Shown here piece by piece: positions 52 to 54,111 of a stretch of DNA of 62,865 bases. Positions within the stretch are counted from its first letter, which is position 1. Each line of letters starts with the position of its first letter. The position numbers were made by a program, and so were the translations under genes. Source of the DNA: an uncultured Mollicutes bacterium (GTDB taxonomy: Bacteria; Bacillota_I; Bacilli_A; ML615J-28; CAG-313); NCBI GenBank assembly GCA_900538885.1, contig UQAI01000003.1, positions 1-62,865 of the forward strand. The letters run 5' to 3'. A model generated the notes under the pieces. It searched no databases, was not told the origin of the DNA, and was given only the letters and a program-made list of their open reading frames with translations.

Positions 52-2622
52 ATGATTAATCGCTATACACGCTTAGAAATGAAAGAATTATGGTCCGATA
101 AAACCAAGTTTGAAACAATGCTTGAAGTTGAACTTGCATCAATTTACGCACATGTTGAAAAAGGTTTAATAAAAGAAGAAGAATATGAATTAATAAAGAA
201 TAAAGCCAAAGTTGATGTTGATCGTATTTTAGAAATAGAAAAAGAAACTAAACATGATGTTATTGCTTTTACAAAAGCTGTATGTGAAAACATGGATATT
301 GAAAAAAGATGGTTTCATTATGGATTAACTAGTACTGATGTAGTTGATACAGCTAATGCATTACTACTAAAAAAAGCCAATGATATTATTGAACGTGATA
401 TCAAGAAGTTTTTAAAAGTATTAAAAGATAAGGCTTTAACATATAAAAAAACATTGTGTATTGGCAGAACTCACGGACAACATGCTGAAGTAACAAGTTT
501 TGGCTTAAAATGGTTATTATGGTATGATGAATTAAATCGCGATTATAATCGTTTTAAAGAAGAAAGAAAAAATGTTGAAACAGTTAAATTAAGTGGGGCA
601 GTCGGTAATTATGCTGATGTGGATCCATTTGTGGAAAAAAGGGTTGCGGAAAGATTAGGTTTAAATCAATCAACCATCGCAACACAAGTATTATCACGTG
701 ACCGCCATATTGGTTATATGAATAGTCTTGTCATGATTTCAAGTTTACTTGAAAAAATAGCAATGGAAGTTCGCCATCTTGCAAGGACAGAAATAGGTGA
801 AGTTAGTGAAGCGTTTAGTACTAATCAAAAAGGTTCAAGCGCAATGCCTCATAAGAAAAACCCAATAGCATCAGAAAATATCTGTGGTTGTGCTAGACTA
901 ATGAAAGCATATCTTGGGGTAACATATGATGATAATCCTTTATGGGATGAACGCGATATTAGCCATTCATCTGCTGAACGAGTAGCATTAAGCGATGCGA
1001 CTACATTAATTGATTATATGCTTAACCGCTATGCTCATGCCTTATCTACGCTTCAAGTAAATGAAGAAAGAATGCTTGAAAACATTGATATCACAAATGG
1101 TGTTGTTTATTCATCTCGCCTTCTACTTAAAATGGTGGAAAAAGGTATGCTTAGAGATGAAGCATACGATATACTTCAAAACCTTGCCTTTAAGGCTTTA
1201 CAAGAGAAAAAGGCTTATATTGATGTTATTAAATCAAGTGAAGTAACAAAAACTTTATCAATTAAAGAAATCGATGAAGCTTTTAATCCAATGCTTGCTC
1301 TACAAAATATTGATGAAATTTATAGTAAAGTGCTTACTCCAAAATGTCGTACCCTTGTAGTACTTGGTAGTGGCTGGGGAGATGAAGGAAAAGGTAAAAT
1401 CACTAATTATTTAAGTGAACAATCAGATTACGTTGTGCGTTTCCAAGGCGGTGACAATGCCGGTCATACAATTCAATTTAATGGTAAAACTTTTAAATTG
1501 CATTTAATCCCATCAGGAATTTTTGATGGAAAAATAAAGAATGTTTTAGGTAATGGTATGGTAATTAATCCTGAGGCTTTAGTAGAAGAATTAAATACTA
1601 TTAAACAAGAAGGCTTTGTATGCAATAATTTATTTATTAGTGACCGTGCTCATGTTATCTTTAACTATCATAAAGAACTTGACAGATGTAATGAAATGGC
1701 TCTTGCGAATAGAAAAATAGGAACAACCTTAAAAGGTATTGGCCCAGCTTATACTGATAAAGTTTCACGTCAAGGCTTAAGAATGGTTGATTTTATTAGT
1801 GATGATTTTTCAAGATTATTTAGAGAAAACGCAACTGCTAAAAATGAAATAATTAAATCAATGGGAGGTAGTCCAATTGATGTTGAAACAAGTCTTCAAA
1901 AATATTTAGAAATAAGCAAAATTATTAAGCCAATGGTTGTTGATACAATTGATTTAATCAATAAGGCTTATGACGAAAATAAAAAAATATTATTTGAAGG
2001 AGCTCAAGGTTCACTTCTTGATATTGATTTTGGTACATATCCATTCGTTACTTCATCTAACCCTTCAAGCGGAGGTGTATCAACAGGTACAGGAATTAGC
2101 CCAACCAAAATTGAAGAAGTACTTGCGATTGTCAAAGCATATTCAACAAGAGTTGGTAGTGGAGCTTTCCCTACTGAGTTATTTGATGAACTTGGTAATT
2201 CAATTAGAGAAAAAGCTCATGAGTATGGAGCAACAACAAAACGTCCACGTCGTATTGGTTGGTTAGATGGTGTCGCATTACGCTATAGCACTAATATCAA
2301 TGGCTTTACAAGCATTTCTTTGATGTTACTTGATATTTTATCAGGTATTGAAAAAATAAAAATTTGTACGGCATACGAATTAGATGGGAAGAAAATTTAT
2401 ACTATTCCTGCTAGTCTTAAAGATTATGAACGTTGTATTCCAGTATATGAAGAATTTGATGGATGGACTGAAGACATTAGTCATGTTACATCATTTGATG
2501 AATTGCCAGAGAATGCTAAAAAATATATTGAGGGTATTGAAAGAATAACCAAAGTACCAGTTAAAATCTTTTCAGTTGGTCCTGATAAAACTCAAACCAT
2601 TGTAAGAGAAGAAATATACTAA
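52..2622 (+). CDS. purB-purA: Fused adenylosuccinate lyase (N-terminal ~430 aa) and adenylosuccinate synthetase (C-terminal ~425 aa) in one 856-aa ORF
   Basis: The N half reads as full-length PurB (MINRYTRLEM..., GLTSTDVVDT, QKGSSAMPHKKNP). The C half starts VVLGSGWGDEGKGK, then QGGDNAGHT, GIGPAY, TTKRPRRIGW and SVGPDKTQT, which reads as full-length PurA. A GGAGGT RBS precedes ATG 52. There is no stop, RBS or start codon at the junction. Confidence 0.9.
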   Translation: MINRYTRLEMKELWSDKTKFETMLEVELASIYAHVEKGLIKEEEYELIKNKAKVDVDRILEIEKETKHDVIAFTKAVCENMDIEKRWFHYGLTSTDVVDTANALLLKKANDIIERDIKKFLKVLKDKALTYKKTLCIGRTHGQHAEVTSFGLKWLLWYDELNRDYNRFKEERKNVETVKLSGAVGNYADVDPFVEKRVAERLGLNQSTIATQVLSRDRHIGYMNSLVMISSLLEKIAMEVRHLARTEIGEVSEAFSTNQKGSSAMPHKKNPIASENICGCARLMKAYLGVTYDDNPLWDERDISHSSAERVALSDATTLIDYMLNRYAHALSTLQVNEERMLENIDITNGVVYSSRLLLKMVEKGMLRDEAYDILQNLAFKALQEKKAYIDVIKSSEVTKTLSIKEIDEAFNPMLALQNIDEIYSKVLTPKCRTLVVLGSGWGDEGKGKITNYLSEQSDYVVRFQGGDNAGHTIQFNGKTFKLHLIPSGIFDGKIKNVLGNGMVINPEALVEELNTIKQEGFVCNNLFISDRAHVIFNYHKELDRCNEMALANRKIGTTLKGIGPAYTDKVSRQGLRMVDFISDDFSRLFRENATAKNEIIKSMGGSPIDVETSLQKYLEISKIIKPMVVDTIDLINKAYDENKKILFEGAQGSLLDIDFGTYPFVTSSNPSSGGVSTGTGISPTKIEEVLAIVKAYSTRVGSGAFPTELFDELGNSIREKAHEYGATTKRPRRIGWLDGVALRYSTNINGFTSISLMLLDILSGIEKIKICTAYELDGKKIYTIPASLKDYERCIPVYEEFDGWTEDISHVTSFDELPENAKKYIEGIERITKVPVKIFSVGPDKTQTIVREEIY

Positions 2623-5274: not shown

Positions 5275-7125
5275 ATGAAAAAAGCAATACATTTTACTCT
5301 TGTTATGAGTCTAATTTGCCTTATTATGGCATTTGCAAGCTGTAAGAAACCGGAAGATGAAGAAAAAGGCTTGGTGGAAATCACATATGTTGCAAATGGT
5401 GGAAATATTGAAGTAACTACTCATAACATTGAAGTAGGCATGATATCTGGACTTTATGTACCAACTCGTGATAACTACAAATTTTTAGGATGGTATAAAG
5501 AAGCTGATTTTTCAGGAGAAACCTATTTTAATTATGAAGCAACAAAAGCTGAAAAAATTACATTATATGCTAAGTGGGAAATAATCATTGACTATGATAA
5601 AGTAACAAATACTAAAGCTGCCATCAATGCTTTAGTTAAAATCATTTCACTAGAAGATGAAGACCAAATTATTTATGCTAGAACACTATATGATGATTTA
5701 AACATAGATGAAAAAAGATTAATAACTAATTATTCAGATCTTGAAAAAGCTGAATTATATCTTTCTTCATTAAAGCAAATTGAAGGATATAAAAAAGATG
5801 CTCAAACGGTAATTGATTTAATCGATAAGATTGGTGAAATAATTGATGAAAACGAAGAAGAAAATATCAATAACGCAAAAGCCGCATATGATGCATTATC
5901 TAAACCAGCAAGGCAATATGTAACTAATTATGATAAACTAACTGATAGTATGAAAAAATTAGAATCATATTTATTAAATCAAATGTATAGTGACGCAAAA
6001 GCAATGAATGTGATGATTGCGAAAATTCCAAGTATTGTTTCATATCCTGATAAAACTTATATTTATGAGGTAAAGGATGCATATGATAATTTAAGGCCAA
6101 CCGCAAAAAAATATGTTAATCTATATTATAAATTAGAAAATGCTCTTCAAGCGATTGATGATATTGAAAAAAACACTAATCAAATTACTTATGTTTTAGG
6201 AAATAGTATTTATACATCACGTGAAGAATTATTTATTGCTTTTATGAGTGATTATTACTACTTTATTAATGCTAATTTTGGCAGTGTTACTCTTGAAACT
6301 AGAAACATTAAAACTTGTCAAGACTTTTTAGATTATGCTAGTAATTATAATGCTGGCCGTGGTCAAATGCGAGCAATCGGTGATGAATTTGCTGAATACT
6401 ATTTAACGCGCGATGTTAATGGCATTATGGAAAATCAGTCTGCTAGTACTTTTATTGGATATTGCCTTGAAAATAATAAACACCGTGATTTTATTGATTT
6501 CTTAAGTAGATTTTTTGCTTATTGGCGTATTGATGAAGGCTATGCTAATAAAACTAATTATGGTGCGGATTTATATGCTGAGGCATGGGCTGCACTTGTT
6601 GATACTTGTAAATTCTTCTATTATACAGTAGATACTTGCTATGTTAAATCTGAAAGAATGAAAGATTGTTACAATTTCACATCATCAGTAGTTTATGGTG
6701 AACTTCCAACGCTACTTAGAGGTGAAGTAACGCTTCCAACTGACCTTAAACTTCGTGGATATCGTTTTGCCGGTTGGTATGATAGTCCTAATTATGATGG
6801 CGAACCAATTAAGGCAGTAAAACCAGGTCAAAAAGTGATTTTATATGCTAAATGGGAAAAAGACGAGAATCAACAAAGCGTTGATGCTGCCTCAAAAGTA
6901 GAAGTATATATCTATAATCTAACTACTGAAAAGGCTAATATTACATCAAGTACCATAGGGTATGTTAGATCAATGTATGATAATTTAACTGAATATGGTA
7001 AAACTTTAGTAAGTAATTATAATGAATTAGTAGAAATTGAAAATAATACTACTGTACAAATCCTTTTAGGTTATTATAATCATATTAGTACAGAATACTA
7101 TTTGGAAAAGAACTCTAGCTTTTAG
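5275..7125 (+). CDS. Surface lipoprotein with two Listeria-Bacteroides (Flg_new-type) repeats and four copies of a helical YD.L....V.NY..L motif
   Basis: A signal peptide ends in the lipobox-like AFAS-C at Cys23. GWY...LYAKWE repeat signatures occur at aa ~35-102 and ~470-528. The RBS AAGAGGAAA lies inside the pdp 3' end. Confidence 0.7.
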   Translation: MKKAIHFTLVMSLICLIMAFASCKKPEDEEKGLVEITYVANGGNIEVTTHNIEVGMISGLYVPTRDNYKFLGWYKEADFSGETYFNYEATKAEKITLYAKWEIIIDYDKVTNTKAAINALVKIISLEDEDQIIYARTLYDDLNIDEKRLITNYSDLEKAELYLSSLKQIEGYKKDAQTVIDLIDKIGEIIDENEEENINNAKAAYDALSKPARQYVTNYDKLTDSMKKLESYLLNQMYSDAKAMNVMIAKIPSIVSYPDKTYIYEVKDAYDNLRPTAKKYVNLYYKLENALQAIDDIEKNTNQITYVLGNSIYTSREELFIAFMSDYYYFINANFGSVTLETRNIKTCQDFLDYASNYNAGRGQMRAIGDEFAEYYLTRDVNGIMENQSASTFIGYCLENNKHRDFIDFLSRFFAYWRIDEGYANKTNYGADLYAEAWAALVDTCKFFYYTVDTCYVKSERMKDCYNFTSSVVYGELPTLLRGEVTLPTDLKLRGYRFAGWYDSPNYDGEPIKAVKPGQKVILYAKWEKDENQQSVDAASKVEVYIYNLTTEKANITSSTIGYVRSMYDNLTEYGKTLVSNYNELVEIENNTTVQILLGYYNHISTEYYLEKNSSF

Positions 7126-12558: not shown

Positions 12559-13728
12559 ATGAAAAAAATAAGATTTATTATGAAAAGTATGTTATGCGGA
12601 TTAGTCATCGTAGGTTTGTTATTTATAAAAAGTATGAAAAATACAAAAGCCGATGAAGAACTAGTGAAATATGCGAAAAGTGCCATTTTAATAGAAGTAG
12701 AAACAGGTACTATTTTATATGAATATAATGCACATGAAAGATATGAACCAGCTAGTATGACTAAAATAATGACAATGAAACTAGTATTAGATGCACTAGC
12801 ATCAAAAAGAATTGAAAAAAATCAAATGTTAGCTACAAGTGAAAACGCCAAAAGCAAGGGTGGTACTCAAATATATTTAGAAGTTGGCGAAAAAATGAAG
12901 GTAGAAGATTTGTTTAAAGCCATGGTTATCGCATCTGCAAATGACGCCGCAACAACTCTTGCGGAAGGAATAAGTGGAAGTGAACAATTTTTTGTTTCAC
13001 AAATGAATAATGAAGTAAAAAAACTAGGGCTTAAGAATACCCATTTTAGTAATGTTACAGGCCTTCCAACTGAAAACCATTATAGTTCAAGTTATGATAT
13101 GGCAATGATTGCTCGTAATCTACTAGTTAAATATGAAAATGAAATAATACCATATACAAGCAAATATGAAGACTATGTAAGAGAAGATTCGGATAAACCT
13201 TTCTGGCTGGTTAACACTAACAAACTAATTAAACATGCTGAAGGGGTCGATGGCTTAAAAACGGGATGGACAGAAAGTGCAGGTTACTGCTTGACTTGTA
13301 CGAAGAAAAAAGATGGCATGCGTTTAATTTCAGTGGTAATGAATGCCGATACTGTTCAACATCGCAGTGAAGATACTTTATCACTACTAAATTATGGCTT
13401 TGCAACATATGAAAAAATGGTAATAGTGCCTAAAAATACAGAAGTAAAAAAAGATAAAAATATTTTACTTGATCCTTCAGCTTATAATATAATTACAAGT
13501 AATAGTGTTGTTAAAATTATAAAGAAAAATACTAAACTAAATAATCCTAGAATAGAAATTGAGTATGATATTGAAAAAATTAACAACTTGAACCAATATA
13601 ATATCGGTAAAATGAAAGTATATGTTGATAATGAATTAATTGGTGAGGCATCTTTAGAACTAGAAAAAACGCCAAAGAAAAATTCTTTTATTAATGTACT
13701 GCGATTAATAATTAAACAAATATTTTAA
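12559..13728 (+). CDS. dacF: D-alanyl-D-alanine carboxypeptidase (PBP5/DacF-like, signal peptide)
   Basis: The SxxK motif (ASMTKIMT), SAND (SxN) and KTGWT (KTG) are present. The gene sits directly upstream of spoIIAA-spoIIAB-sigF, as dacF does in Bacillus. Confidence 0.8.
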   Translation: MKKIRFIMKSMLCGLVIVGLLFIKSMKNTKADEELVKYAKSAILIEVETGTILYEYNAHERYEPASMTKIMTMKLVLDALASKRIEKNQMLATSENAKSKGGTQIYLEVGEKMKVEDLFKAMVIASANDAATTLAEGISGSEQFFVSQMNNEVKKLGLKNTHFSNVTGLPTENHYSSSYDMAMIARNLLVKYENEIIPYTSKYEDYVREDSDKPFWLVNTNKLIKHAEGVDGLKTGWTESAGYCLTCTKKKDGMRLISVVMNADTVQHRSEDTLSLLNYGFATYEKMVIVPKNTEVKKDKNILLDPSAYNIITSNSVVKIIKKNTKLNNPRIEIEYDIEKINNLNQYNIGKMKVYVDNELIGEASLELEKTPKKNSFINVLRLIIKQIF

Positions 13729-20368: not shown

Positions 20369-21376
20369 ATGAAGAAAATTGGTAGAAATAGTTTAAGTTT
20401 TGATAGTGTTTTTATTGAAAACACTGCTGTTGTGACGGGACCAAAAGAAAAAGATGGTCCAATAGGTAGTTATTTTGATTATAGTTATAACAACAATTAT
20501 TGTAATGAAAAAACTTGGGAAAAAGCTGAGATTGCACTTGTTAAAAAAGCTTTTGAAATAATTTGTGAGAAAGAAAATATAAGTCCTAATGATATTGATG
20601 TGATGTTTGGCGGAGATTTAAATAATCAAATTGCGGTTAGTACATATGCAATGCGTAATACTTTTATTCCGTTTCTTGGCACGTTTGCGGCATGTTCAAC
20701 TATTACTGAAAATATTATTTTAGGTAGTATTTATGTCGATAGTATTAAAAATGCTAAGGTTTTGGTCACTAGTTCAAGTCATAATGCCACAAGTGAAAGG
20801 CAATTTCGTTATCCTACTGAATATGGCGGACAAAAGCCTACGTCAATGACTTTCACCGCAACTGCTGCTGGTGCATGTTTATTAGGTATTAAACCTACGC
20901 ATATTAGAGTAAAATCAGGAACAATTGGAAAGATTATTGATGTAAATCAAAAAGATGCTCAAGATATGGGACGAGTAATGGCTCCAAGTGCTGCTGAAAC
21001 GCTTTTTGATCACTTAAGCAATTTTAAAGAAACGGTAGCTGGTTATGATGCCATAGTAACAGGTGATTTATCAGTATATGGTAGTGAATTATTTATTAAG
21101 TGTTGTAGTGAAAATGGAATTATATTAGGAAATAAGCATATGGATGCCGGCAAAAACTTGTATGATATTAAAAAACAAAAAGTATTTGCAGGGGGGAGTG
21201 GTTGTGGTTGTATAACGGCCTATTTACTTAGTTATATCGTTAAAGAATTAATAAAAGGAACATATAAAAAGGTATTAATACTTGCGACAGGGGCACTATT
21301 GAATCCCGTTATGGTGGCTCAAAAGGATACGATTCCTTGTATTAGTCATGCAATATGTTTGGAAAGGTGTGATTAA
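20369..21376 (+). CDS. spoVAD: Stage V sporulation protein AD
   Basis: The 335-aa protein is a thiolase-fold SpoVAD (VVTGPKEKDGP, GGDLNNQI, FAGGSGCGC). Confidence 0.9.
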   Translation: MKKIGRNSLSFDSVFIENTAVVTGPKEKDGPIGSYFDYSYNNNYCNEKTWEKAEIALVKKAFEIICEKENISPNDIDVMFGGDLNNQIAVSTYAMRNTFIPFLGTFAACSTITENIILGSIYVDSIKNAKVLVTSSSHNATSERQFRYPTEYGGQKPTSMTFTATAAGACLLGIKPTHIRVKSGTIGKIIDVNQKDAQDMGRVMAPSAAETLFDHLSNFKETVAGYDAIVTGDLSVYGSELFIKCCSENGIILGNKHMDAGKNLYDIKKQKVFAGGSGCGCITAYLLSYIVKELIKGTYKKVLILATGALLNPVMVAQKDTIPCISHAICLERCD

Positions 21377-21727
21377 ATGAAGTTTTTATTAGCATTTTTA
21401 GTGTGCGGATTAATTTGTATGATTGCGCAGTTAATTATGGATTTATGCAAATTACTGCCAATTCATTTAACAGTTATATATGTTATGCTTGGCTCATTTT
21501 TAGAATGTTTTGGTCTATATGATAAATTGATTGAGATTGCAGGTGGTGGAGCACTAGTTCCCATTTCATCTTTTGGACATTCCCTTACCCATGCCGCAAT
21601 AAAAGCAGCAGAAGATAGTGGAATAATGGGACTTTTTACAGGTATTTTTGATATAACATCTAGTGGTATTTCCGCCGCAATTTTCTCATCATTTATTATT
21701 GCCTTAATTTTTAAACCACGTGGTTAA
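21377..21727 (+). CDS. spoVAE: Stage V sporulation protein AE (AEb-type)
   Basis: It is a 116-aa membrane protein (GGGALVPISSFGHSL) located immediately after spoVAD. Confidence 0.85.
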   Translation: MKFLLAFLVCGLICMIAQLIMDLCKLLPIHLTVIYVMLGSFLECFGLYDKLIEIAGGGALVPISSFGHSLTHAAIKAAEDSGIMGLFTGIFDITSSGISAAIFSSFIIALIFKPRG

Positions 21728-21728
21728 A

Positions 21729-23126
21729 ATGAATAATAAACAAAATTTTCAGTCCCTTGATGAAATTTTAGGGTTAAATATAACATTTGATATTGTTAAA
21801 AGAACAATAACTAATCATAATAATTTAGTTTTTACGTTTTATTATGATTCGTTTTTATCAAATAGTCTTACTATTTCAAGATTAATTACGAGTTTTATTA
21901 AATTAAAAGATAAAATTGATGAGAATAATATAAAAAATGTAATAACTAATAATCTGATTGCTGAAAATTTGAAATTTACTTCAAATTTAACAGATGCAAG
22001 TCAAGCAGTATTTAATGGTGATTTAGTGTTAACATGTGACATTACCCCATTAATGTTTATAGCGGAAACTAAACAGTACCCCACACGTTCAATTAGTGAA
22101 CCTGATGGTGAGAAAGTAGTAAGGGGAAGTAGAGATGGCTTTACCGAGAATTTCGCAACCAATATTGGATTAATTAGAAGAAGAATTAAAACAGGTAAAC
22201 TAGGAATGAAAGTTTATGAATTAGGGACGGTTAGTAAAACAAAAGTGGCTTTAGTTTATTTAAAAGATGTGATTAAACCTAATATTCTTAGGACAATTAT
22301 GGAAAAACTTAATAATATTAAAGTTAAAGAATTAACCATGAGTGATAAAGCTCTCGAAGAACTATTAGTTAATCATCGTTATAGTCCTTACCCATTAGTA
22401 AAGTATACCGAAAGACCAGATACTCTTGCGATTCATTTATATCAAGGAATGTTTGGTTTAATTGTTGATACTTCACCTAGTGCTATCTTAGGTCCAGTTA
22501 GCATTTTTGATCATCTACAACATGCGGAAGAGTTTAGACAAACTGTAGTAGCAGGTTCATATCTTAGGTTAATTAGAATAATAGGAATAGTTATCGCCTT
22601 TTTCAGTATTCCATTGTGGTATGCTTTAACAGATTATAATCTACCTAATATATTAAAACCGTTCATTCCAAGTAGTCATAATCACAATATTCTTTTTTTA
22701 CAATTAATTACAGTACTAATTGGAATTGAATTAATTAGAATGGCTTCAATTCATACACCAAGTGCTTTGTCTACTTCAATGGGGTTAGTTTCAGGACTAA
22801 TAATTGGAGATGTTGCAATAAAGGTTGGATTATTTACTGAACAAATTGTAATTTTAGCAGCGATTTCAGCAATTGGATCTTACATAACTCCAAGTTATGA
22901 ATTATCGCTCGCCAATAAAATGGCTAATATATTTTTACTATTAAGTGTATATTTTTTTAAGATGCCTGGCTTTATCTGTGGAACTATTTTACTTATTATC
23001 TATCTTGCCTGCCTTAAAAGTTTCAAACGGCCTTATCTTTATCCCCTTATTCCCCTTAATATTAAAGATTTATTTAAACAATTATTTAGAGTTCCATACA
23101 AACATAAAGAAAAAACTAAACACTAA
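21729..23126 (+). CDS. spoVAF: GerA-family spore germination protein (SpoVAF-like)
   Basis: GerA-type core (EPDGEKVVRGSRDGFTENF, IRRRIK) plus a C-terminal TM bundle. ATG 21729 lies 1 nt after the spoVAE stop. The track's GTG 21720 is an alternative start. Confidence 0.8.
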   Translation: MNNKQNFQSLDEILGLNITFDIVKRTITNHNNLVFTFYYDSFLSNSLTISRLITSFIKLKDKIDENNIKNVITNNLIAENLKFTSNLTDASQAVFNGDLVLTCDITPLMFIAETKQYPTRSISEPDGEKVVRGSRDGFTENFATNIGLIRRRIKTGKLGMKVYELGTVSKTKVALVYLKDVIKPNILRTIMEKLNNIKVKELTMSDKALEELLVNHRYSPYPLVKYTERPDTLAIHLYQGMFGLIVDTSPSAILGPVSIFDHLQHAEEFRQTVVAGSYLRLIRIIGIVIAFFSIPLWYALTDYNLPNILKPFIPSSHNHNILFLQLITVLIGIELIRMASIHTPSALSTSMGLVSGLIIGDVAIKVGLFTEQIVILAAISAIGSYITPSYELSLANKMANIFLLLSVYFFKMPGFICGTILLIIYLACLKSFKRPYLYPLIPLNIKDLFKQLFRVPYKHKEKTKH

Positions 23127-32564: not shown

Positions 32565-34241
32565 ATGGCAAAAGAAAAGTTATCAGAATATGAACAAAAG
32601 ACCAAGGAATTTATATTTGTTTATGAAGTAGCAGGAATAGTATGTCTATTATTTTCTTTGATCTCAATCGCAAGACTTGGAATTGTAGGAAAATATGGAA
32701 TGTTAACTTTTCGCTTATTCTTTGGTGATTGGTATTTTATTTTTTTACTACTGTTAGGAGCACTAGGTGTTTATTTCCTTTTTGTGCATCATCGCTTTAC
32801 TATAAAAAATATTAGATACCTAGGAACTGTGATGATTGCACTGGCGATAATTACCTTAAGCCATTTTGCAATGCATAATTTTGTCAGTAAATATGAAGGA
32901 AATAGTTTTAAAAATACTATCCTTTTATATTTTGACTATTTCAAAAATGGTCGTAATGATATGATGATTGGTGGAGGTCTAGTTGGCTGCATCCTTTTTT
33001 ATCTTCTTTTTTTATTGTTTTCCAAAGTTGGTACTATCATATTTTGTATTGTCGTAATTTTTGTTGGCATTGTTTTTGTTTGTAAAAAAACAGTGTTTGA
33101 ATTCTTTAAAATGGTAAAAATTGGCTTGAAAAAGTGTTTTGGAGGGGCTTTTAAATATTCTAAAAAAGTTGGTAGTAAATTAAAACAATTTAATGATGAT
33201 TATATTGTTAAAGATAAAGTAACCAAACCACTACCATTAAGAAAACTTAATAATGAGGTTGTTGATACAAGTAAAGAAAATAAATTAATGCTAGAATACA
33301 TAATGAATATAAAAAAAGAGTTAAGTCATTTAAGTATTTTCTATCAAGATATTAGTTATATTATTTGTAATCATATTAGTGTTATTTTTATAAAAACTTA
33401 CCAACAAGTTAATTATGAAGTTTTAAGAATATCACTTTGTAAAATTTTAAATGAGCCATTTTTAATAAGGTATGATAAAAAAAATGATATGATAGTAATT
33501 GAAGTAAATAATTTAATAGGTAATTCATTAAGGATGAAAGAAGCGTTAATTCATTCCTCAACTGAAAATTTGGAAATAGTGATTGGCAAGGATGATCGAA
33601 ATGACTATGTAATATGTGATGAAAACTTACTAATTATTTCTCAAAATGATAGTGTTTATCGTAATTATTTGACATCACTTATTTTTTACCCAAAGTTCCA
33701 AAAAACAATCAATGAATATGAAATTTATTTACTTGATTTAAATAATAATCTATATCAGTTTGAAAATTTAGGAATTGAGTTTGGTACTACTCTTGATTTT
33801 TTACGGACTATTAAGACTAAAATGGATGAAAAACTAGAAGTATTAAATAATAACAATACTAACAACATTGATGAATACAATAAAACTAGTCCTGAAAAAC
33901 TAAAGAAGACATTAGTTTATATAAATGGTATTGAAAAAATAATTGATAGTTTTGAATATAATCAAATACTAGAATATTTGTTGATTACTGGTGGTAACAT
34001 TGGATATAAATTTATTGGTGGCTGTACAAGTGGAGAAATAAACTTAGATAGTTTAATGAAGAGTTTTGCTTACCGGGTATTTTTGGATAATAACTTTAAC
34101 AATGCTTTCAATTATGTCAATCGACGTATGATTAGTAGTATTAATAATAAAATAGAAGGATTTTTAAAATATCGCGATTTGTTAATAAGAATAAGCTTGT
34201 TAATGCTTACAAAAGAAGAACTAGATAAACTAAAAAGGTGA
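32565..34241 (+). CDS. FtsK/SpoIIIE-like membrane protein with degenerate (motif-less) motor domain
   Basis: It has an N-terminal 4-5 TM bundle like the FtsK N domain. The C-terminal ~300 aa follow the FtsK order (IEVNN, LEIVIGKDDRNDYVICD, ...), but Walker A reads SQNDSVYRN and Walker B reads INGIE. Confidence 0.6.
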   Translation: MAKEKLSEYEQKTKEFIFVYEVAGIVCLLFSLISIARLGIVGKYGMLTFRLFFGDWYFIFLLLLGALGVYFLFVHHRFTIKNIRYLGTVMIALAIITLSHFAMHNFVSKYEGNSFKNTILLYFDYFKNGRNDMMIGGGLVGCILFYLLFLLFSKVGTIIFCIVVIFVGIVFVCKKTVFEFFKMVKIGLKKCFGGAFKYSKKVGSKLKQFNDDYIVKDKVTKPLPLRKLNNEVVDTSKENKLMLEYIMNIKKELSHLSIFYQDISYIICNHISVIFIKTYQQVNYEVLRISLCKILNEPFLIRYDKKNDMIVIEVNNLIGNSLRMKEALIHSSTENLEIVIGKDDRNDYVICDENLLIISQNDSVYRNYLTSLIFYPKFQKTINEYEIYLLDLNNNLYQFENLGIEFGTTLDFLRTIKTKMDEKLEVLNNNNTNNIDEYNKTSPEKLKKTLVYINGIEKIIDSFEYNQILEYLLITGGNIGYKFIGGCTSGEINLDSLMKSFAYRVFLDNNFNNAFNYVNRRMISSINNKIEGFLKYRDLLIRISLLMLTKEELDKLKR

Positions 34242-49784: not shown

Positions 49785-49813
49785 TTTACAATAATGATAC
49801 TTTATGGTATAAT
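49785..49813 (+). promoter_or_regulatory. Sigma-A promoter for the paralogous membrane-protein pair
   Basis: TTTACA (49785-49790), a 17-nt spacer, then TGGTATAAT (49805-49813). Confidence 0.6.
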
Positions 49814-49824
49814 AGGTGTATAAA

Positions 49825-49869
49825 ATGCTAAAAAATATAGTAAAATCGGCTGATTTTTCAAGGGAGTGA
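49825..49869 (+). CDS. Candidate 14-codon leader ORF (MLKNIVKSADFSRE)
   Basis: AGGTG at 49814-49818 lies 6 nt before ATG 49825. The TGA stop at 49867-49869 falls directly after the main gene's RBS AAGGGAG and 4 nt before ATG 49874. Confidence 0.25.
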   Translation: MLKNIVKSADFSRE

Positions 49870-49873
49870 ATGT

Positions 49874-50890
49874 ATGTTATCAAAAGGTCAAAAAGTTTAC
49901 ATGTACATTAGTGCAATTTTGTCAATGTTAATTGGAATTGTTGTCTTTGTTCCATTTAGAACATTACCATTTTTGTGCAACATGGAAAATGTAGAAACTA
50001 TTATGAAAGCAGAAATGCTAATTAAATTTGCAATTTTACCTGTTGTAATTATTGCATTATCTATTTATGCAAATGTAAAAAAATATCGTGATATACAAGA
50101 GTGCTTAGATAGATCTAAAGTAGTAAATGTAATGAGCTATTTTCCAATTGTTTCTTACTTATGTGCTATTTTAGTATTTGTTACTCACACATTAGCTTAT
50201 AGCTGTGAACCTCTTGGATTTGGTCCATGGGCTGTAATAATGGTATTACTAATCTTATATTTAGCTTTCTTAGTTGTTGGATTCCATTGTTTTTCTAACT
50301 TATTATTTAAGTTAAATATTACTACAACTATAATATTAGACTGCGTTATATTAGCAGTAACAGCATGTTTTGTTATAGTTGCATGGAGAGTTGACGTAAA
50401 TTACCTTGATGTATTTAAAGCAGAAGAAGCATTCGTTGGACATGGTGACCCAGTCTTATTCTTCCTATACATTATTACAGTTATTTCATTCATTGTTATT
50501 TGTGCAAGACTTGCAAGAATCTTTAAAAAAGACAATCGCAGCATTTATGTATGTGATGAAGCATTTGAAAGAGATTATGATCGTATTGTAAAAAGAGAAT
50601 ATAATCGTGCTTACAATGACATTATGGATGATTTTGAAATTTATTTTAAACATCATTTTGAAGATGAGTTTGATCCAAAAGGAAAAAAACCAGAAACCGA
50701 AAATGAAAATGAAGAAACATTAGATGAAGAACAAGCACCAGCACATTGTGCTAACTGTGGTGCTGAATTAATTCCAGGAAATGATTTCTGTACTAATTGT
50801 GGTACAAAAGTTGAAACTCCAGTAGAAGAGCAAACTGAAACTGAAGAATCAGAAGAAAACACAGAATCTACTGAGACTGTTGAAGAATAA
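49874..50890 (+). CDS. Polytopic membrane protein with C-terminal zinc ribbon and acidic tail (338 aa), paralog of the next gene
   Basis: It has about 6 TM helices, then CANC-x10-CTNC and a T/E-rich tail. I did not recognise the membrane domain as a named family. Confidence 0.6.
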   Translation: MLSKGQKVYMYISAILSMLIGIVVFVPFRTLPFLCNMENVETIMKAEMLIKFAILPVVIIALSIYANVKKYRDIQECLDRSKVVNVMSYFPIVSYLCAILVFVTHTLAYSCEPLGFGPWAVIMVLLILYLAFLVVGFHCFSNLLFKLNITTTIILDCVILAVTACFVIVAWRVDVNYLDVFKAEEAFVGHGDPVLFFLYIITVISFIVICARLARIFKKDNRSIYVCDEAFERDYDRIVKREYNRAYNDIMDDFEIYFKHHFEDEFDPKGKKPETENENEETLDEEQAPAHCANCGAELIPGNDFCTNCGTKVETPVEEQTETEESEENTESTETVEE

Positions 50891-50911
50891 GTAGTAGAAA
50901 GGAAAAATATT

Positions 50912-53869
50912 ATGTTAAATAGTAGAGAGAAGAAAATAATGTTTATAAATAGTATGATTTCCGTTGCTATTGCTTTAGCAATTTGCATTCCTTGGGGATT
51001 AAATGGTGTTCCTCGTGTTGAAATAATTTTGAAAGTAATAGTTTTACCAATTATTGCATTAGTTTTATTTTTATTAAATTTATCAACAAAGTATCGTAAC
51101 TACCGTCCATCATTACGTTACACAACTGTAGCTTGCTATATGCCGATTTTTACTGCAATGGCTGCGTTGTTATTCAATGGTTTAATGATGCTTGTAAGAT
51201 CTGCTGATCCTTATACAACAACTCATTGGATTGTTAATGTAATGGTTTGTTCATTATTATTTGTTAGTATTGCGGTTGTATCTCATCAATTTTATAAATT
51301 TGTGGTAACATTTAGTAAAAATGAAATGATGTTAATTGATACAGCTATTGCGGTATTATTCGTAGGATTATTATTCTACATGAATAATATTGGAAATAAA
51401 TATGTTGATTTAGCCGCAAACAATAATGCGACATTTAACTCATCTGTATTTTTCTTAATTGTCCCAATCGTATTTGGTGCTTTAATTACAGGTTTACATG
51501 TGTTATCAATGGTTAAACTATATAAATTAAATCCTGAATATTCAGTTGATTCAAGAGAACGTTTAATTAAAGAATTTATTGCAGCTCACAAGAGAGAATA
51601 TGATAAAGCTGAACAACACATTCTTGAACAATTATTTACTTATACAAGAGACCAACTAGGATTATGTGGCTTAGAAAACGATGAATTAGAAACATTAAGA
51701 CATGAGATTGAGGTGATTGAAGGTATGAAAACAGCACTTGAAGCAGAAATTGCAGAATTAAAGAAAAGTATCGCTGAAGAACAAGAAAATGCTCCAGCCG
51801 TTGATGCTAGAGTAATTGCATTACAAGATAAATTAGCTCATTTACAAGTTTTACTTGCACAAATGCAATTAGAATATGTTAATGAACAAAATAAAGTAAC
51901 TCAAGAAAGAGCAGTGCTTGAAAATGAAAAGGCAACATTAAATGCTGAAAAAATTGCTTTCGCAAAAGAAAAAGCTGAATACGTTCCTGAAGTAATTGAG
52001 AAAGTAGTTGAAGTTGAAAAACAAGTTGAAGTTATGAGTCCAGAAGATAAAGCTGAACTTGAAACTTTAAGAAAATCTGAAGGTGAACGTCGAGCAGAAC
52101 ATGCTGAACTTGAATATTTAAGAACTTCAGAAGCAGAACGCCGTGCTGATCGTGCTGAACTTGATGCTTTAAGAAGAGCAGAAGCACAACGTATCGCTGA
52201 GCGCATAGAACTTGAAAAATTACGTGAAGCTGAAAAAGCACATGAAGCTGAACTTGCAAGACTTGAAGAAGAAGCAAAAGCTGCTGAAGAAGCACACCAA
52301 GCAGAAGTTGCAAGACTAGCTGAAGAAGCAAAAGCTGCTGAAGAAGCACACCAAGTAGAAGTTACAAGACTTGAAGAAGAAGCAAAAGCAGCTGAAGAAG
52401 CACATCAAGCAGAAGTTGCAAGACTTGAAGAAGAAGCAAAAGCTGCTGAAGAAGCACACCAAGCAGAAGTTGCAAGACTAGCTGAAGAAGCAAAAGCTGC
52501 TGAAGAAGCACACCAAGCAGAAGTTGCAAGACTTGAAGAAGAAGCAAAAACTATTGAAGCAGAACGTCAAGCCGAAAAAGAAGAATTAGCAACATTAAGA
52601 GAAGCTGAAGAAAAACGTCGTGCTGATCATGCCGCAGAACTTGCAAGACTTGAAGAAGAAGCAAAAGCAACTGAAGAAGCGCACCAAGCAGAACTTGCAA
52701 GACTTGAAGAAGAAGCAAAAGCAGTTGAAGAAGCAAGATTAGCTGAAGAAGCAAGAGCAGCTGAAGAAGCAAAAGCAGCTGAAATTGCAAGATTAGCTGA
52801 AGAAGCAAGAGTTGCAAAAGAATTAGAAGAACTTGATGCACTTAGAAAAGCTGAAGCTGAAAGAGAAGCTGAAAGAATCGCTAAAGAAAAAGAAAAAGAA
52901 GCAAGAGAAAAATTAAAGAAGAAAAAAGTATTTAAACCTTCTTATGAAAAAGTTGTTAAATATGCATCAACTATTCCTAATAAAGAAATTAGAGTTGTTC
53001 CAAATGCAAAAGGCAACATTAGTAGATATTTCTACGGCAAGAGATTATTCTTAATCACAATGTCAACAAATAATGATTACCGTATCACTTTCTGCAGTAA
53101 TCAAGAAAAAGCTTTCCCACTAATCGTTGAATATCCTGGTACTATCGTTAAAGCTACAAGTCCTAAAGGTGAACAATGGTTTAGATTAGTTAATAAAGGC
53201 GAATTAGATGAAAAACTAATTAAGAATATTGTTAAAAATTCAATCGCATATTATGACGAAATAGATGCTGAAAAACAAAGATTAATCGAAGAAGAAAAAG
53301 CTCGTAAACAAGCTGAAAAAGATGCTATTAAAGCTGAAAAACAAAGATTAATCGAAGAAGAAAAAGCTCGTAAACAAGCTGAAAAAGATGCTATTAAAGC
53401 TGAAAAACAAAAGGCAATCGAAGAAGAAAGAGCTCGTAAACAAGCAGAAAAAGACGCTGCAATGTCTGCAGTTCAAGCTGAAAAAGATGCTAAATTACAA
53501 GCTGTAGCAGAAGAAAAAGCTCGTAAAGAAGCTGCATTAGCTGCCGAAAAAGCAGAAAAAGCAAAAGCTCTTGAAAAAGAGAAACTAGCAAAACAAAAAG
53601 CTGCTGAAAAAGAAAAAGAAAAACTAGCAAAACAAAAAGCCGCTGAAAAAGAGAAACTAGCAAAACAAAAAGCTGCTGAAAAAGAAAAAGAAAAGCTAGC
53701 AAAACAAAAAGCCGCTGAAAAAGAAAAACTAGCAAAACAAAAAGCTGCTGAAAAAGAAAAAGAAAAGCTAGCAAAACAAAAAGCCGCTGAAAAAGAAAAG
53801 TTAGCAAAACAAAAAGCTGCTGAAAAAGAAAAAGCTGCTCAAGCTTCTGCTGAAGAACAAGCAGCATAA
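50912..53869 (+). CDS. Polytopic membrane protein with ~750-aa A/E/K/R-rich repetitive coiled-coil tail and embedded globular domain (985 aa)
   Basis: A GAAAGGAAA RBS precedes the start. The N-terminal ~230 aa are homologous to the preceding gene. The remainder is heptad-like and built from four tandem-repeat families. Confidence 0.65.
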   Translation: MLNSREKKIMFINSMISVAIALAICIPWGLNGVPRVEIILKVIVLPIIALVLFLLNLSTKYRNYRPSLRYTTVACYMPIFTAMAALLFNGLMMLVRSADPYTTTHWIVNVMVCSLLFVSIAVVSHQFYKFVVTFSKNEMMLIDTAIAVLFVGLLFYMNNIGNKYVDLAANNNATFNSSVFFLIVPIVFGALITGLHVLSMVKLYKLNPEYSVDSRERLIKEFIAAHKREYDKAEQHILEQLFTYTRDQLGLCGLENDELETLRHEIEVIEGMKTALEAEIAELKKSIAEEQENAPAVDARVIALQDKLAHLQVLLAQMQLEYVNEQNKVTQERAVLENEKATLNAEKIAFAKEKAEYVPEVIEKVVEVEKQVEVMSPEDKAELETLRKSEGERRAEHAELEYLRTSEAERRADRAELDALRRAEAQRIAERIELEKLREAEKAHEAELARLEEEAKAAEEAHQAEVARLAEEAKAAEEAHQVEVTRLEEEAKAAEEAHQAEVARLEEEAKAAEEAHQAEVARLAEEAKAAEEAHQAEVARLEEEAKTIEAERQAEKEELATLREAEEKRRADHAAELARLEEEAKATEEAHQAELARLEEEAKAVEEARLAEEARAAEEAKAAEIARLAEEARVAKELEELDALRKAEAEREAERIAKEKEKEAREKLKKKKVFKPSYEKVVKYASTIPNKEIRVVPNAKGNISRYFYGKRLFLITMSTNNDYRITFCSNQEKAFPLIVEYPGTIVKATSPKGEQWFRLVNKGELDEKLIKNIVKNSIAYYDEIDAEKQRLIEEEKARKQAEKDAIKAEKQRLIEEEKARKQAEKDAIKAEKQKAIEEERARKQAEKDAAMSAVQAEKDAKLQAVAEEKARKEAALAAEKAEKAKALEKEKLAKQKAAEKEKEKLAKQKAAEKEKLAKQKAAEKEKEKLAKQKAAEKEKLAKQKAAEKEKEKLAKQKAAEKEKLAKQKAAEKEKAAQASAEEQAA
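52052..52255 (+). repeat. Degenerate 51-bp (17-aa) tandem repeat, about 4 copies, in frame
   Basis: Units start with GCTGAACTTGA at 52052, 52103 and 52154, with a diverged fourth at 52205. They encode AEL(E/D)xLRxxEaeRRA... Confidence 0.75.
52256..52550 (+). repeat. 54-bp (18-aa) tandem repeat, 5 full copies plus a partial, in frame
   Basis: The unit GCAAGACTTGAAGAAGAAGCAAAAGCTGCTGAAGAAGCACACCAAGCAGAAGTT encodes ARLEEEAKAAEEAHQAEV. Copies 1 and 4 are identical, and copies 2 and 5 differ by 1 nt. Confidence 0.9.
53267..53464 (+). repeat. 66-bp (22-aa) tandem repeat, 3 copies, in frame
   Basis: GCTGAAAAACAAAGATTAATCGAAGAAGAAAAAGCTCGTAAACAAGCTGAAAAAGATGCTATTAAA occurs twice exactly (53267 and 53333), followed by a diverged third copy. 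Confidence 0.9.
53573..53835 (+). repeat. 72-bp (24-aa; 33+39 nt sub-units) tandem repeat, about 3.5 copies, in frame
   Basis: EKEKLAKQKAA alternates with EKEKEKLAKQKAA. The DNA copies differ only by a few synonymous or near-synonymous changes. Confidence 0.9.
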
Positions 53870-53904
53870 TATAAATCGTTGATAAAGATTAGTAAATATA
53901 GAGC

Positions 53905-54090
53905 AAATTTTAGAGACTAGTTGGTTGGTGAAAAACTAGATTGCTCGTATTGAAGCTCCTTTTGAGAGGAATTAACAATTCCCGGTAGTTACGTTATAGC
54001 TAATTAAGTGTGTAGTTATGGTAATTACAAATTAGGATGGTACCGCGATTTTATTCGTTCCTATGCTTAGGCATGGGAACTTTTTATTTT
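53905..54090 (+). promoter_or_regulatory. T-box leader (tRNA-Ala responsive) with intrinsic terminator, upstream of alaS
   Basis: The T-box sequence AAATTAGGATGGTACCGCG lies at 54029-54047. The terminator GTTCCTATGC-TTAG-GCATGGGAAC plus T-run lies at 54057-54090. Candidate GCU specifiers are at 53955-53957 or 53943-53945. Confidence 0.8.
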
Positions 54091-54111
54091 GTATGAATGG
54101 AGAAAGATGAC

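Follow-up and report, generated by a model that had tools for sequence, protein, structure and literature searches.

A conserved pair of orphan six-helix membrane proteins with repeat-rich tails and a YjbR/MmcQ-like head in uncultured gut Firmicutes

Several described bacterial systems hold a module at a membrane or at a distance from it. TolA, which spans the periplasm in the Tol-Pal system, has one transmembrane (TM) helix, a long helical domain II rich in Lys, Ala and Glu, and a globular head. Noc, RacA-DivIVA, EzrA and the N-terminal region of RNase Y attach via an amphipathic helix, a partner protein or a single TM helix. YjbR-family proteins are, as far as is known, cytosolic. The known members of this MmcQ/YjbR family (PF04237, formerly DUF419) are small stand-alone proteins, with solved chains of 117-138 aa. 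They adopt a CyaY-like double-wing fold for which DNA binding has been predicted by analogy with MotA (PMC7641849, PMC3424535), and their known fusions are to EVE, TerB or GNAT domains (PMC7641849). Here we describe two adjacent genes, open reading frames (ORFs) A and B, on contig UQAI01000003.1 (assembly GCA_900538885.1) of an uncultured bacterium labelled as a Mollicute. The whole stretch of 62,865 nucleotides that was analyzed is hereafter called the window. Both genes encode a polytopic N-terminal domain (N-domain), and B additionally carries what appears to be a divergent YjbR/MmcQ domain at the far end of a long charged stalk.

The likeness to MmcQ/YjbR lies in the alpha-beta4-alpha-beta2-alpha double-wing fold, predicted for B and for most A-type relatives. 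Unlike in the known members, the domain here ends a charged stalk (about 111-555 aa) of a six-TM protein, sometimes occurs twice in tandem, and has a Lys-rich helix on its C-terminal side. Known tail domains, namely the YjbR/MmcQ fold and an ordinary PF13240 zinc ribbon, are in this way joined to an orphan membrane platform. The family is undescribed, in that neither the N-domain nor the paired architecture is present in the libraries and literature searched; the databases that hold these proteins give them no name or list them only as "hypothetical protein."

Two paralogous genes kept together

ORF-A (49874..50890, + strand) encodes 338 aa comprising a six-TM N-domain, a zinc ribbon and an acidic tail, and ORF-B (50912..53869, + strand) encodes 985 aa. 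As a first interpretation drawn from the nucleotide letters (hereafter the sequence-only reading) had pointed out, the two lie on the same strand with a gap of 21 nt and share a homologous N-domain. Their first 260-270 residues align end to end in BLASTP (E = 6e-11, 20% identity over ~270 aa), and the three segment pairs quoted by that reading fall in register in the alignment. Furthermore, when profiles of 14 A-type and 8 B-type N-domains were compared with hhalign, the probability was 99.75% (E = 3e-27, 244 columns). The BLASTP and profile-profile alignments together place the paralogy well beyond chance. Judged from these comparisons, the N-domains of A (aa 1-261; 49874..50656, +) and B (aa 1-252; 50912..51667, +) are true paralogues whose divergence is probably ancient.

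Hydropathy reveals six hydrophobic segments in both proteins. Lys and Arg are abundant at the N-terminus, in the TM2-TM3 loop and in the stretch after TM6, and A has 17 K/R in the predicted cytoplasmic segments versus 4 in the external loops, as expected from the positive-inside rule. The N-domain is predicted to be N-in/C-in, which would make both tails cytoplasmic, and the Cys4 ribbon in the tail of A agrees with this placement. An AlphaFold2 (AF2) model of the A N-domain, built from a 14-sequence alignment (predicted local distance difference test, pLDDT, 82.7; predicted template modelling score, pTM, 0.79), has helices at residues 4-25, 40-75, 82-108, 119-144, 149-181, 193-219 and 228-260, that is, six TM helices and a juxtamembrane helix, 228-260, with the motif EYNRAYNDIMDDFEIYF. 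Mean column identity in the A N-domain is 53%. In a superfamily alignment of 103 N-domains, P27 is found in all 103, E47 in 99 and K51 in 102; the last two, where TM2 begins, are separated by one helical turn. Y89 and P91, at the start of TM3, are nearly universal in the same alignment, and D156, within TM5, occurs in 60/60 A-type and 29/29 B-type sequences.

The sequence-only reading could not place the N-domain in any named family, and neither could the present searches. Pfam and NCBIfam gave nothing beyond sub-threshold noise, an N-domain profile had no meaningful match among PDB sequences, and a Foldseek comparison of the AF2 model with the PDB reached at best E = 0.66 (template modelling scores, TM-scores, of 0.31 or less). 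An internal repeat of the 3+3 or 2+2+2 TM type was sought with hhalign, and the probability did not exceed 1.5%. An exhaustive HMMER search of 1.84 billion representative proteins returned 101 clusters, all belonging to the N-domain family and all with matches that begin at residue 1, and no further copy of either the N-domain or the globular domain of B was found elsewhere in the window. The N-domain is, both by sequence and by fold, an orphan.

A and B form a conserved two-gene operon, because a conserved consensus-like promoter and ribosome-binding site (RBS) precede A, the gap between the genes is only 21 nt and no terminator was found in the A-B intergenic interval. The promoter (49785..49813, +) is of the sigma-A type, TTTACA-17-TATAAT with an extended -10 TG (TTTACA-17-TGnTATAAT); it matches 11 of the 12 consensus positions, and its position upstream of A is kept at equal distance in close as well as distant lineages. 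The RBS of ORF-A, read from the sequence as AAGGGAG (49861..49867, +), is kept in the form AAGGGAGTG or AAGGAGTG in nearly all loci, and ORF-B has its own RBS, GAAAGGA, 8 nt upstream. The sequence of the 5' untranslated region (5'UTR) between the promoter and the RBS of A is not conserved. Of the two upstream elements put forward by the sequence-only reading, the promoter has held up, but the possible leader ORF has not: this 14-codon frame is shifted by 1-nt indels in three related loci (L001, L004 and L013) and lacks an ATG in a fourth (L006), and distant lineages, where the 5'UTR is not conserved, do not have the frame at all. A read-through A-B fusion was also considered. The two ORFs share a frame in the window, but the frame relation differs at other loci, and so such a fusion is rejected as a conserved feature.

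The conservation of the pair in other genomes is complete in the material examined. An A-B pair is present in 31/31 loci, which comprise 16 GTDB species and further metagenomic contigs and fall in three unrelated neighbourhoods; every related genome examined has the two genes together. A third subgroup of proteins ("C-type", 255-312 aa) consists of the N-domain and a short acidic tail, and this N-domain-only subgroup sits in two quite different neighbourhoods (loci L030 and L031). In both, the very next gene encodes a long paralogue in which a PEVK-like linker leads to a YjbR-like domain and then to a basic tail. Since the partner is always adjacent in these two settings, the pair travels as a unit.

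Gene fusion provides an additional clue. At loci L028 and L029 the same syntenic slot is occupied by a single gene encoding two tandem N-domains, one YjbR-like domain and a basic tail. The two fusion proteins (P0064 and P0136) are 57% identical, the P0136 cluster holds 20 member sequences, and in each lineage the fusion is the sole gene in the slot. Such a Rosetta-stone fusion in two lineages supports an A-B complex, lending independent weight to the hetero-oligomer suggested by the sequence-only reading, and it is the best available evidence that the two N-domains may work together physically.

Tail architecture and its variation

Beyond its N-domain, B runs on for 735 residues, a repetitive sequence rich in A, E, K and R that is interrupted by a globular island of 115 aa. 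This had been read as about 750 aa of coiled coil interrupted by a globular domain. The repetitive sequence and the island are indeed there, but coiled-coil-like hydrophobic content is confined to ~120 aa next to the membrane (about aa 250-375). The proximal helical segment (aa 253-375; 51668..52036, +) contains 33% LIVMFYW with a 3.5-3.6 residue periodicity (z ~2.2, in a crude home-made Fourier analysis rather than a formal predictor), and its motif LQDKLAHLQVLLAQMQLEY is kept in B orthologues. It leads into an acidic A/E-rich repeat spacer (aa 376-662; 52037..52897, +) with tandem repeats of 51, 54 and 162 nt, and the rod as a whole (aa 250-662) has a net charge of -54. The remainder of the stalk is 8-17% hydrophobic and ~50% charged, with frequent Glu-Lys pairs at i/i+3-4. 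For this distal part, a charged single helix of the ER/K type or a PEVK-like spacer would fit the composition better than a coiled coil.

PEVK-like V/E/K/P repeats (VEKVVEVEK, PVEKVVEV) are found in the window at 51970..52030 (B aa ~355-372) and recur in the spacers of distant B proteins (L008 7993-10638, L030 7911-9608, L031 6843-8378). Their composition resembles that of the titin PEVK entropic spring.

The globular island (aa 669-783; 52916..53260, +), which the sequence-only reading had left anonymous, has a net charge of +7 and is preceded by a basic patch, KEKEKEAREKLKKKK. Homologous globular copies from A-type and B-type proteins align well with one another; 10/16 family copies match PF04237 (YjbR), with a best E of 7.8e-07, and precomputed annotation places the same family on three of the proteins (P0009, P0020 and P0022). 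When a profile of the head family is compared with PDB sequences, the DUF419/YjbR structure 2a1v ranks first, though weakly (E = 0.025). An AF2 model of the B head (pLDDT 82.8) was compared with the PDB in Foldseek. Its three best matches are E. coli YjbR (2fki; TM-score 0.66/0.68), DR2400 (2a1v; 0.66) and PSPTO_3016 (3h9x/2kfp; 0.61-0.63), all at probabilities of 0.99-1.00, and together they make up the full set of PF04237 proteins with a solved structure. Lower down the list comes the C-terminal, DNA-binding domain of T4 MotA, with a TM-score of 0.40-0.47. Modelled in this way, the globular domain of B appears to be a divergent YjbR/MmcQ domain of the CyaY-like double-wing type. It is followed by a basic K/A/E repeat tail (aa 787-985; 53270..53866, +) with a net charge of +15 and repeats of 11, 22 and 24 aa, and the tandem repeats of this tail at the DNA level measure 66 nt (94% matches) and 72 nt (97% matches).

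The tail of A is much shorter. Its CANC-x10-CTNC motif, recognized previously from the letters, is a zinc ribbon (aa 291-313; 50744..50812, +) that scores 27.9 bits against Pfam PF13240 (Zn_Ribbon_1; cut-off 25), and the tail is acidic as had been stated, with a net charge of -22 over 77 aa. The contrast then drawn between the two proteins, a zinc ribbon in one and a coiled coil in the other as swapped tails, turns out to be confined to the window lineage, because in most lineages A also carries YjbR-like domains. Both paralogues in fact use the same tail modules. A has zero, one or two YjbR-like domains, and in most lineages at least one together with a basic tail, while a zinc ribbon is found in 11/36 A-type clusters, some of which carry two. 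In the window lineage A has lost its YjbR-like head and kept the zinc ribbon only. Every complete B has a YjbR-like domain and a long spacer, with two such domains in L015, L016 and P0073.

The length of the B tail varies widely among orthologues, as the sequence-only reading had proposed to survey: the spacer between the N-domain and the first head measures 111-555 aa and the terminal tail 27-398 aa. B has 985 aa here; it reaches 1111 aa in a genome with an A N-domain 93% identical to that of the window, and others have 872, 876 or 951 aa. Among close relatives these differences map to the tandem-repeat arrays, some of which are 94-97% identical at the DNA level. The charge pattern varies far less. 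Spacers are acidic without exception (99/99; mean net charge -22), and a net positive charge is found on 74% of the heads and on 80% of the tails that follow the last head.

Public metagenome-assembled genome (MAG) assemblies break, with runs of N, within the B repeat arrays (L006 ~12560-12660, L017 ~3750, L030 ~9500). Gene callers thus miss or truncate B at these breaks, and B lengths in databases are unreliable.

Proposed role and rival explanations

We put forward that A and B most likely assemble through their six-helix domains into a hetero-oligomer. After the conserved juxtamembrane helix, each cytoplasmic tail would run on as an acidic spacer whose length differs greatly from protein to protein and which changes from a coiled coil close to the membrane to a charged helix or a PEVK-like repeat farther out. 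At their far end the tails would have one or two double-wing domains of the YjbR/MmcQ type and, behind these, a helical tail rich in lysine; some tails would also include a zinc ribbon. In the window, B would present a single YjbR-like head on a spacer of ~420 aa and A the zinc ribbon only. The membrane anchor would in this manner hold a polyanion-binding head away from the membrane, the ligand most likely being a nucleic acid and probably DNA; the head and its flanks are positively charged, which would suit nucleic-acid binding but does not prove it. That this heteromeric anchor, with nucleic-acid-binding heads on long stalks, acts as a membrane-nucleoid or membrane-RNA tether or spacer is the reading we tentatively favour, as possible though somewhat short of probable. 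The ruler, tether or scaffold suggested by the sequence-only reading likewise has the standing of an inference. A bolder version is that an orphan heterodimeric six-TM platform with a repeat-encoded acidic stalk serves as an evolvable molecular ruler, constituting a new membrane-nucleoid or membrane-RNA tether. A stalk of 111-555 aa would span roughly 17-83 nm if fully helical and would set the reach of the YjbR head into the cytoplasm; we regard this version as unlikely.

Several observations weigh against a tether. The window's own B head has no PF04237 match at E <= 1 and reaches no Pfam threshold, and the literature contains no experimentally demonstrated DNA binding for any YjbR-family protein; since binding in the family is predicted only, the ligand of the head is a guess. 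About a quarter of the heads are not basic, and A is headless in some lineages. The topology was derived from hydropathy and the positive-inside rule rather than a dedicated predictor, and the A-B heteromer, most likely as it seems, is drawn from genomic evidence only. Moreover, the near-invariant Glu/Lys pair of TM2 and the invariant Asp of TM5, kept in both paralogues, go beyond what a passive anchor would need and hint that the N-domain has a function of its own.

This last point leads directly to an alternative whose active core is the six-helix domain: A and B would together make up a small transporter, channel or membrane sensor, the tails would serve regulation or scaffolding, and the head would bind a protein or small ligand rather than nucleic acid. 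Such a core would account for the strong conservation of the N-domain (the 53% mean column identity in A), for polar residues conserved at or in the membrane (E47 and K51 at 96-99%, D156 in all A-type and B-type sequences) and for the existence of N-domain-only C-type partners of 255-312 aa, and the lack of an established YjbR ligand in the literature leaves room for it. However, the domain resembles no transporter, channel or sensor family in Pfam, NCBIfam, PDB sequences or Foldseek, and hhalign detects no internal 3+3 repeat. The head and the long spacer are, furthermore, retained by every complete B, a sign that the function needs the tail, and the charge pattern is kept family-wide. On balance we consider a transporter or sensor core somewhat unlikely.

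Two other explanations place the emphasis on the stalks. A long helical stretch in the cytoplasm behind a membrane anchor is also what would be expected of a cytoskeletal element or scaffold that serves division, cell shape or sporulation, comparable to EzrA or to anchored coiled coils like that of RNase Y, with stalks that would recruit proteins and not nucleic acid; the host forms endospores (spoVAD and a GerA-type gene lie in the window), and the proximal coiled-coil segment is conserved. Yet homology with EzrA, DivIVA, SMC or RNase Y is absent, Pfam giving no such match at E <= 1, and the promoter belongs to the housekeeping sigma-A class rather than to a sporulation sigma class; most of the stalk has no hydrophobic seam, and the conserved terminal module is a YjbR-type domain. 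A scaffold of this sort therefore seems distinctly improbable. Hypervariable repeat arrays are likewise reminiscent of surface proteins, and some genes neighbouring the pair at L030 encode surface-type domains, so that the tails could be extracellular and the proteins surface fibrils or adhesins with M-protein-like repeats. Against such a location, the even number of TM helices and the strong positive-inside bias put both termini in the cytoplasm, a Cys4 zinc ribbon lies within the tail, neither a signal peptide nor a wall-anchor motif is present in the sequence, and YjbR-family proteins are small, stand-alone (solved chains of 117-138 aa) and, as far as is known, cytosolic. We judge surface fibrils to be highly improbable.

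What the locus means depends on which of these readings holds. A two-gene module is retained, and fused once, throughout a clade of uncultured gut spore-forming Firmicutes, and its architecture turns the widespread YjbR/MmcQ domain into a clear, testable prediction: membrane-tethered nucleic-acid binding with a tunable stalk length. If it is a tether, the membrane would be linked to the chromosome, or to RNA, by a connector of a new type, and the family would offer a natural series of rulers with which to study spatial organization in the cytoplasm. A ruler-like tether would give the YjbR/MmcQ domain its first physiological role. If the six-helix core is instead a transporter or sensor, it would define a small membrane-protein fold of a new kind, marked by a Glu/Lys pair and a conserved Asp inside the membrane. 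In either case the hosts are uncultured, which makes the immediate value modest.

Genomic setting, hosts and comparison with known systems

The flanks of the pair are as the sequence-only reading had described them. The upstream neighbour of A is an AI-2E-family permease (PF01594, matched on the orthologous gene), and B is bounded downstream by an alaS T-box leader with its terminator (53870..54080, +; RF00230, 112 bits). The first base of the leader directly follows the B stop codon, and the T-box terminator lies at 54057-54080. No terminator was found between B and the T-box, and the interval is also devoid of a good promoter-like site. Across this junction (53867..54096), transcripts started at the A-B promoter may run on into the alaS leader, and the module would then be coupled to the alaS-ruvX unit. 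At syntenic loci the gene order is polC, BaxI, gap, AI-2E permease, A, B, T-box-alaS, ruvX and DUF1292.

Homologues of A form 36 clusters in a collection of 5.8 billion proteins. Among 185,579 species genomes scanned, 16 species carry the module, all of them uncultured MAGs labelled variously as Bacilli, Acholeplasmatales, Mollicutes, Bacillales, Bacillota or Staphylococcaceae, and their samples (Hadza stool, goat colon, gut metagenomes) point to the gut. A word-indexed homology search with the B N-domain gave almost no matches, and B orthologues came to light through the gene neighbourhood of A and through the exhaustive hidden Markov model search. For the N-domain-only subgroup, a metagenome-contig search likewise returned no matches, and its contexts came from an exact-protein look-up. 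The window encodes a D-Ala-D-Ala carboxypeptidase (12559..13728), SpoVAD (20369..21376) and a GerA-type germination protein (21720..23126), and the host is therefore a walled endospore former; the same three genes rule out the wall-less Mollicute host that NCBI labels of some related MAGs, such as Acholeplasmatales or Mollicutes, would suggest. Two other origins were considered and rejected. An anti-phage defence system is at odds with the absence of PADLOC matches and with a context of housekeeping genes (polC, gap, alaS, ruvX), and for a phage origin PHROGs gives just a weak zinc-ribbon match, which is noise.

Other genes of the window deserve a brief mention. An 856-aa PurB-PurA fusion (52..2622, +) joins an adenylosuccinate lyase (Lyase_1 and ADSL_C, aa 14-427) to an adenylosuccinate synthetase (aa 436-850). 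A 616-aa protein (5275..7125, +) may lie at the surface, judging by its Listeria-Bacteroides repeat (Flg_new) domain. A 558-aa ORF (32565..34241, +) has no Pfam match at 1e-5; it starts with several N-terminal TM segments, and the rest is N/I/K-rich without an obvious P-loop. Its N-terminus recalls the membrane domain of FtsK/SpoIIIE.

Set beside the systems outlined at the beginning, the pair shares with TolA a membrane anchor, a long charged A/K/E-rich helical spacer and a small head for a distant partner. Unlike TolA, A and B have six TM helices and a stalk predicted to be cytoplasmic, and there is no sequence relationship (no Pfam match); at E <= 1, full-length B gave in Pfam only a noise match to DUF2231 and none of the TolA, EzrA, DivIVA or SMC type. 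The B stalk also resembles ER/K single alpha-helix spacers and titin PEVK, though in composition only. With PF13240 zinc-ribbon membrane proteins A has in common a bona fide CxxC-x10-CxxC ribbon above the Pfam cut-off, but the ribbon differs in place, lying C-terminal to the six-TM domain within an acidic tail, and is optional in the family. Should the tether be right, the likeness to Noc, RacA-DivIVA, EzrA and RNase Y would be that of a DNA- or RNA-binding or scaffolding module held at the membrane. In contrast to all of these, to which they have no homology, A and B combine a paralogous six-TM pair with a YjbR domain, neither of which is known from any of those systems.

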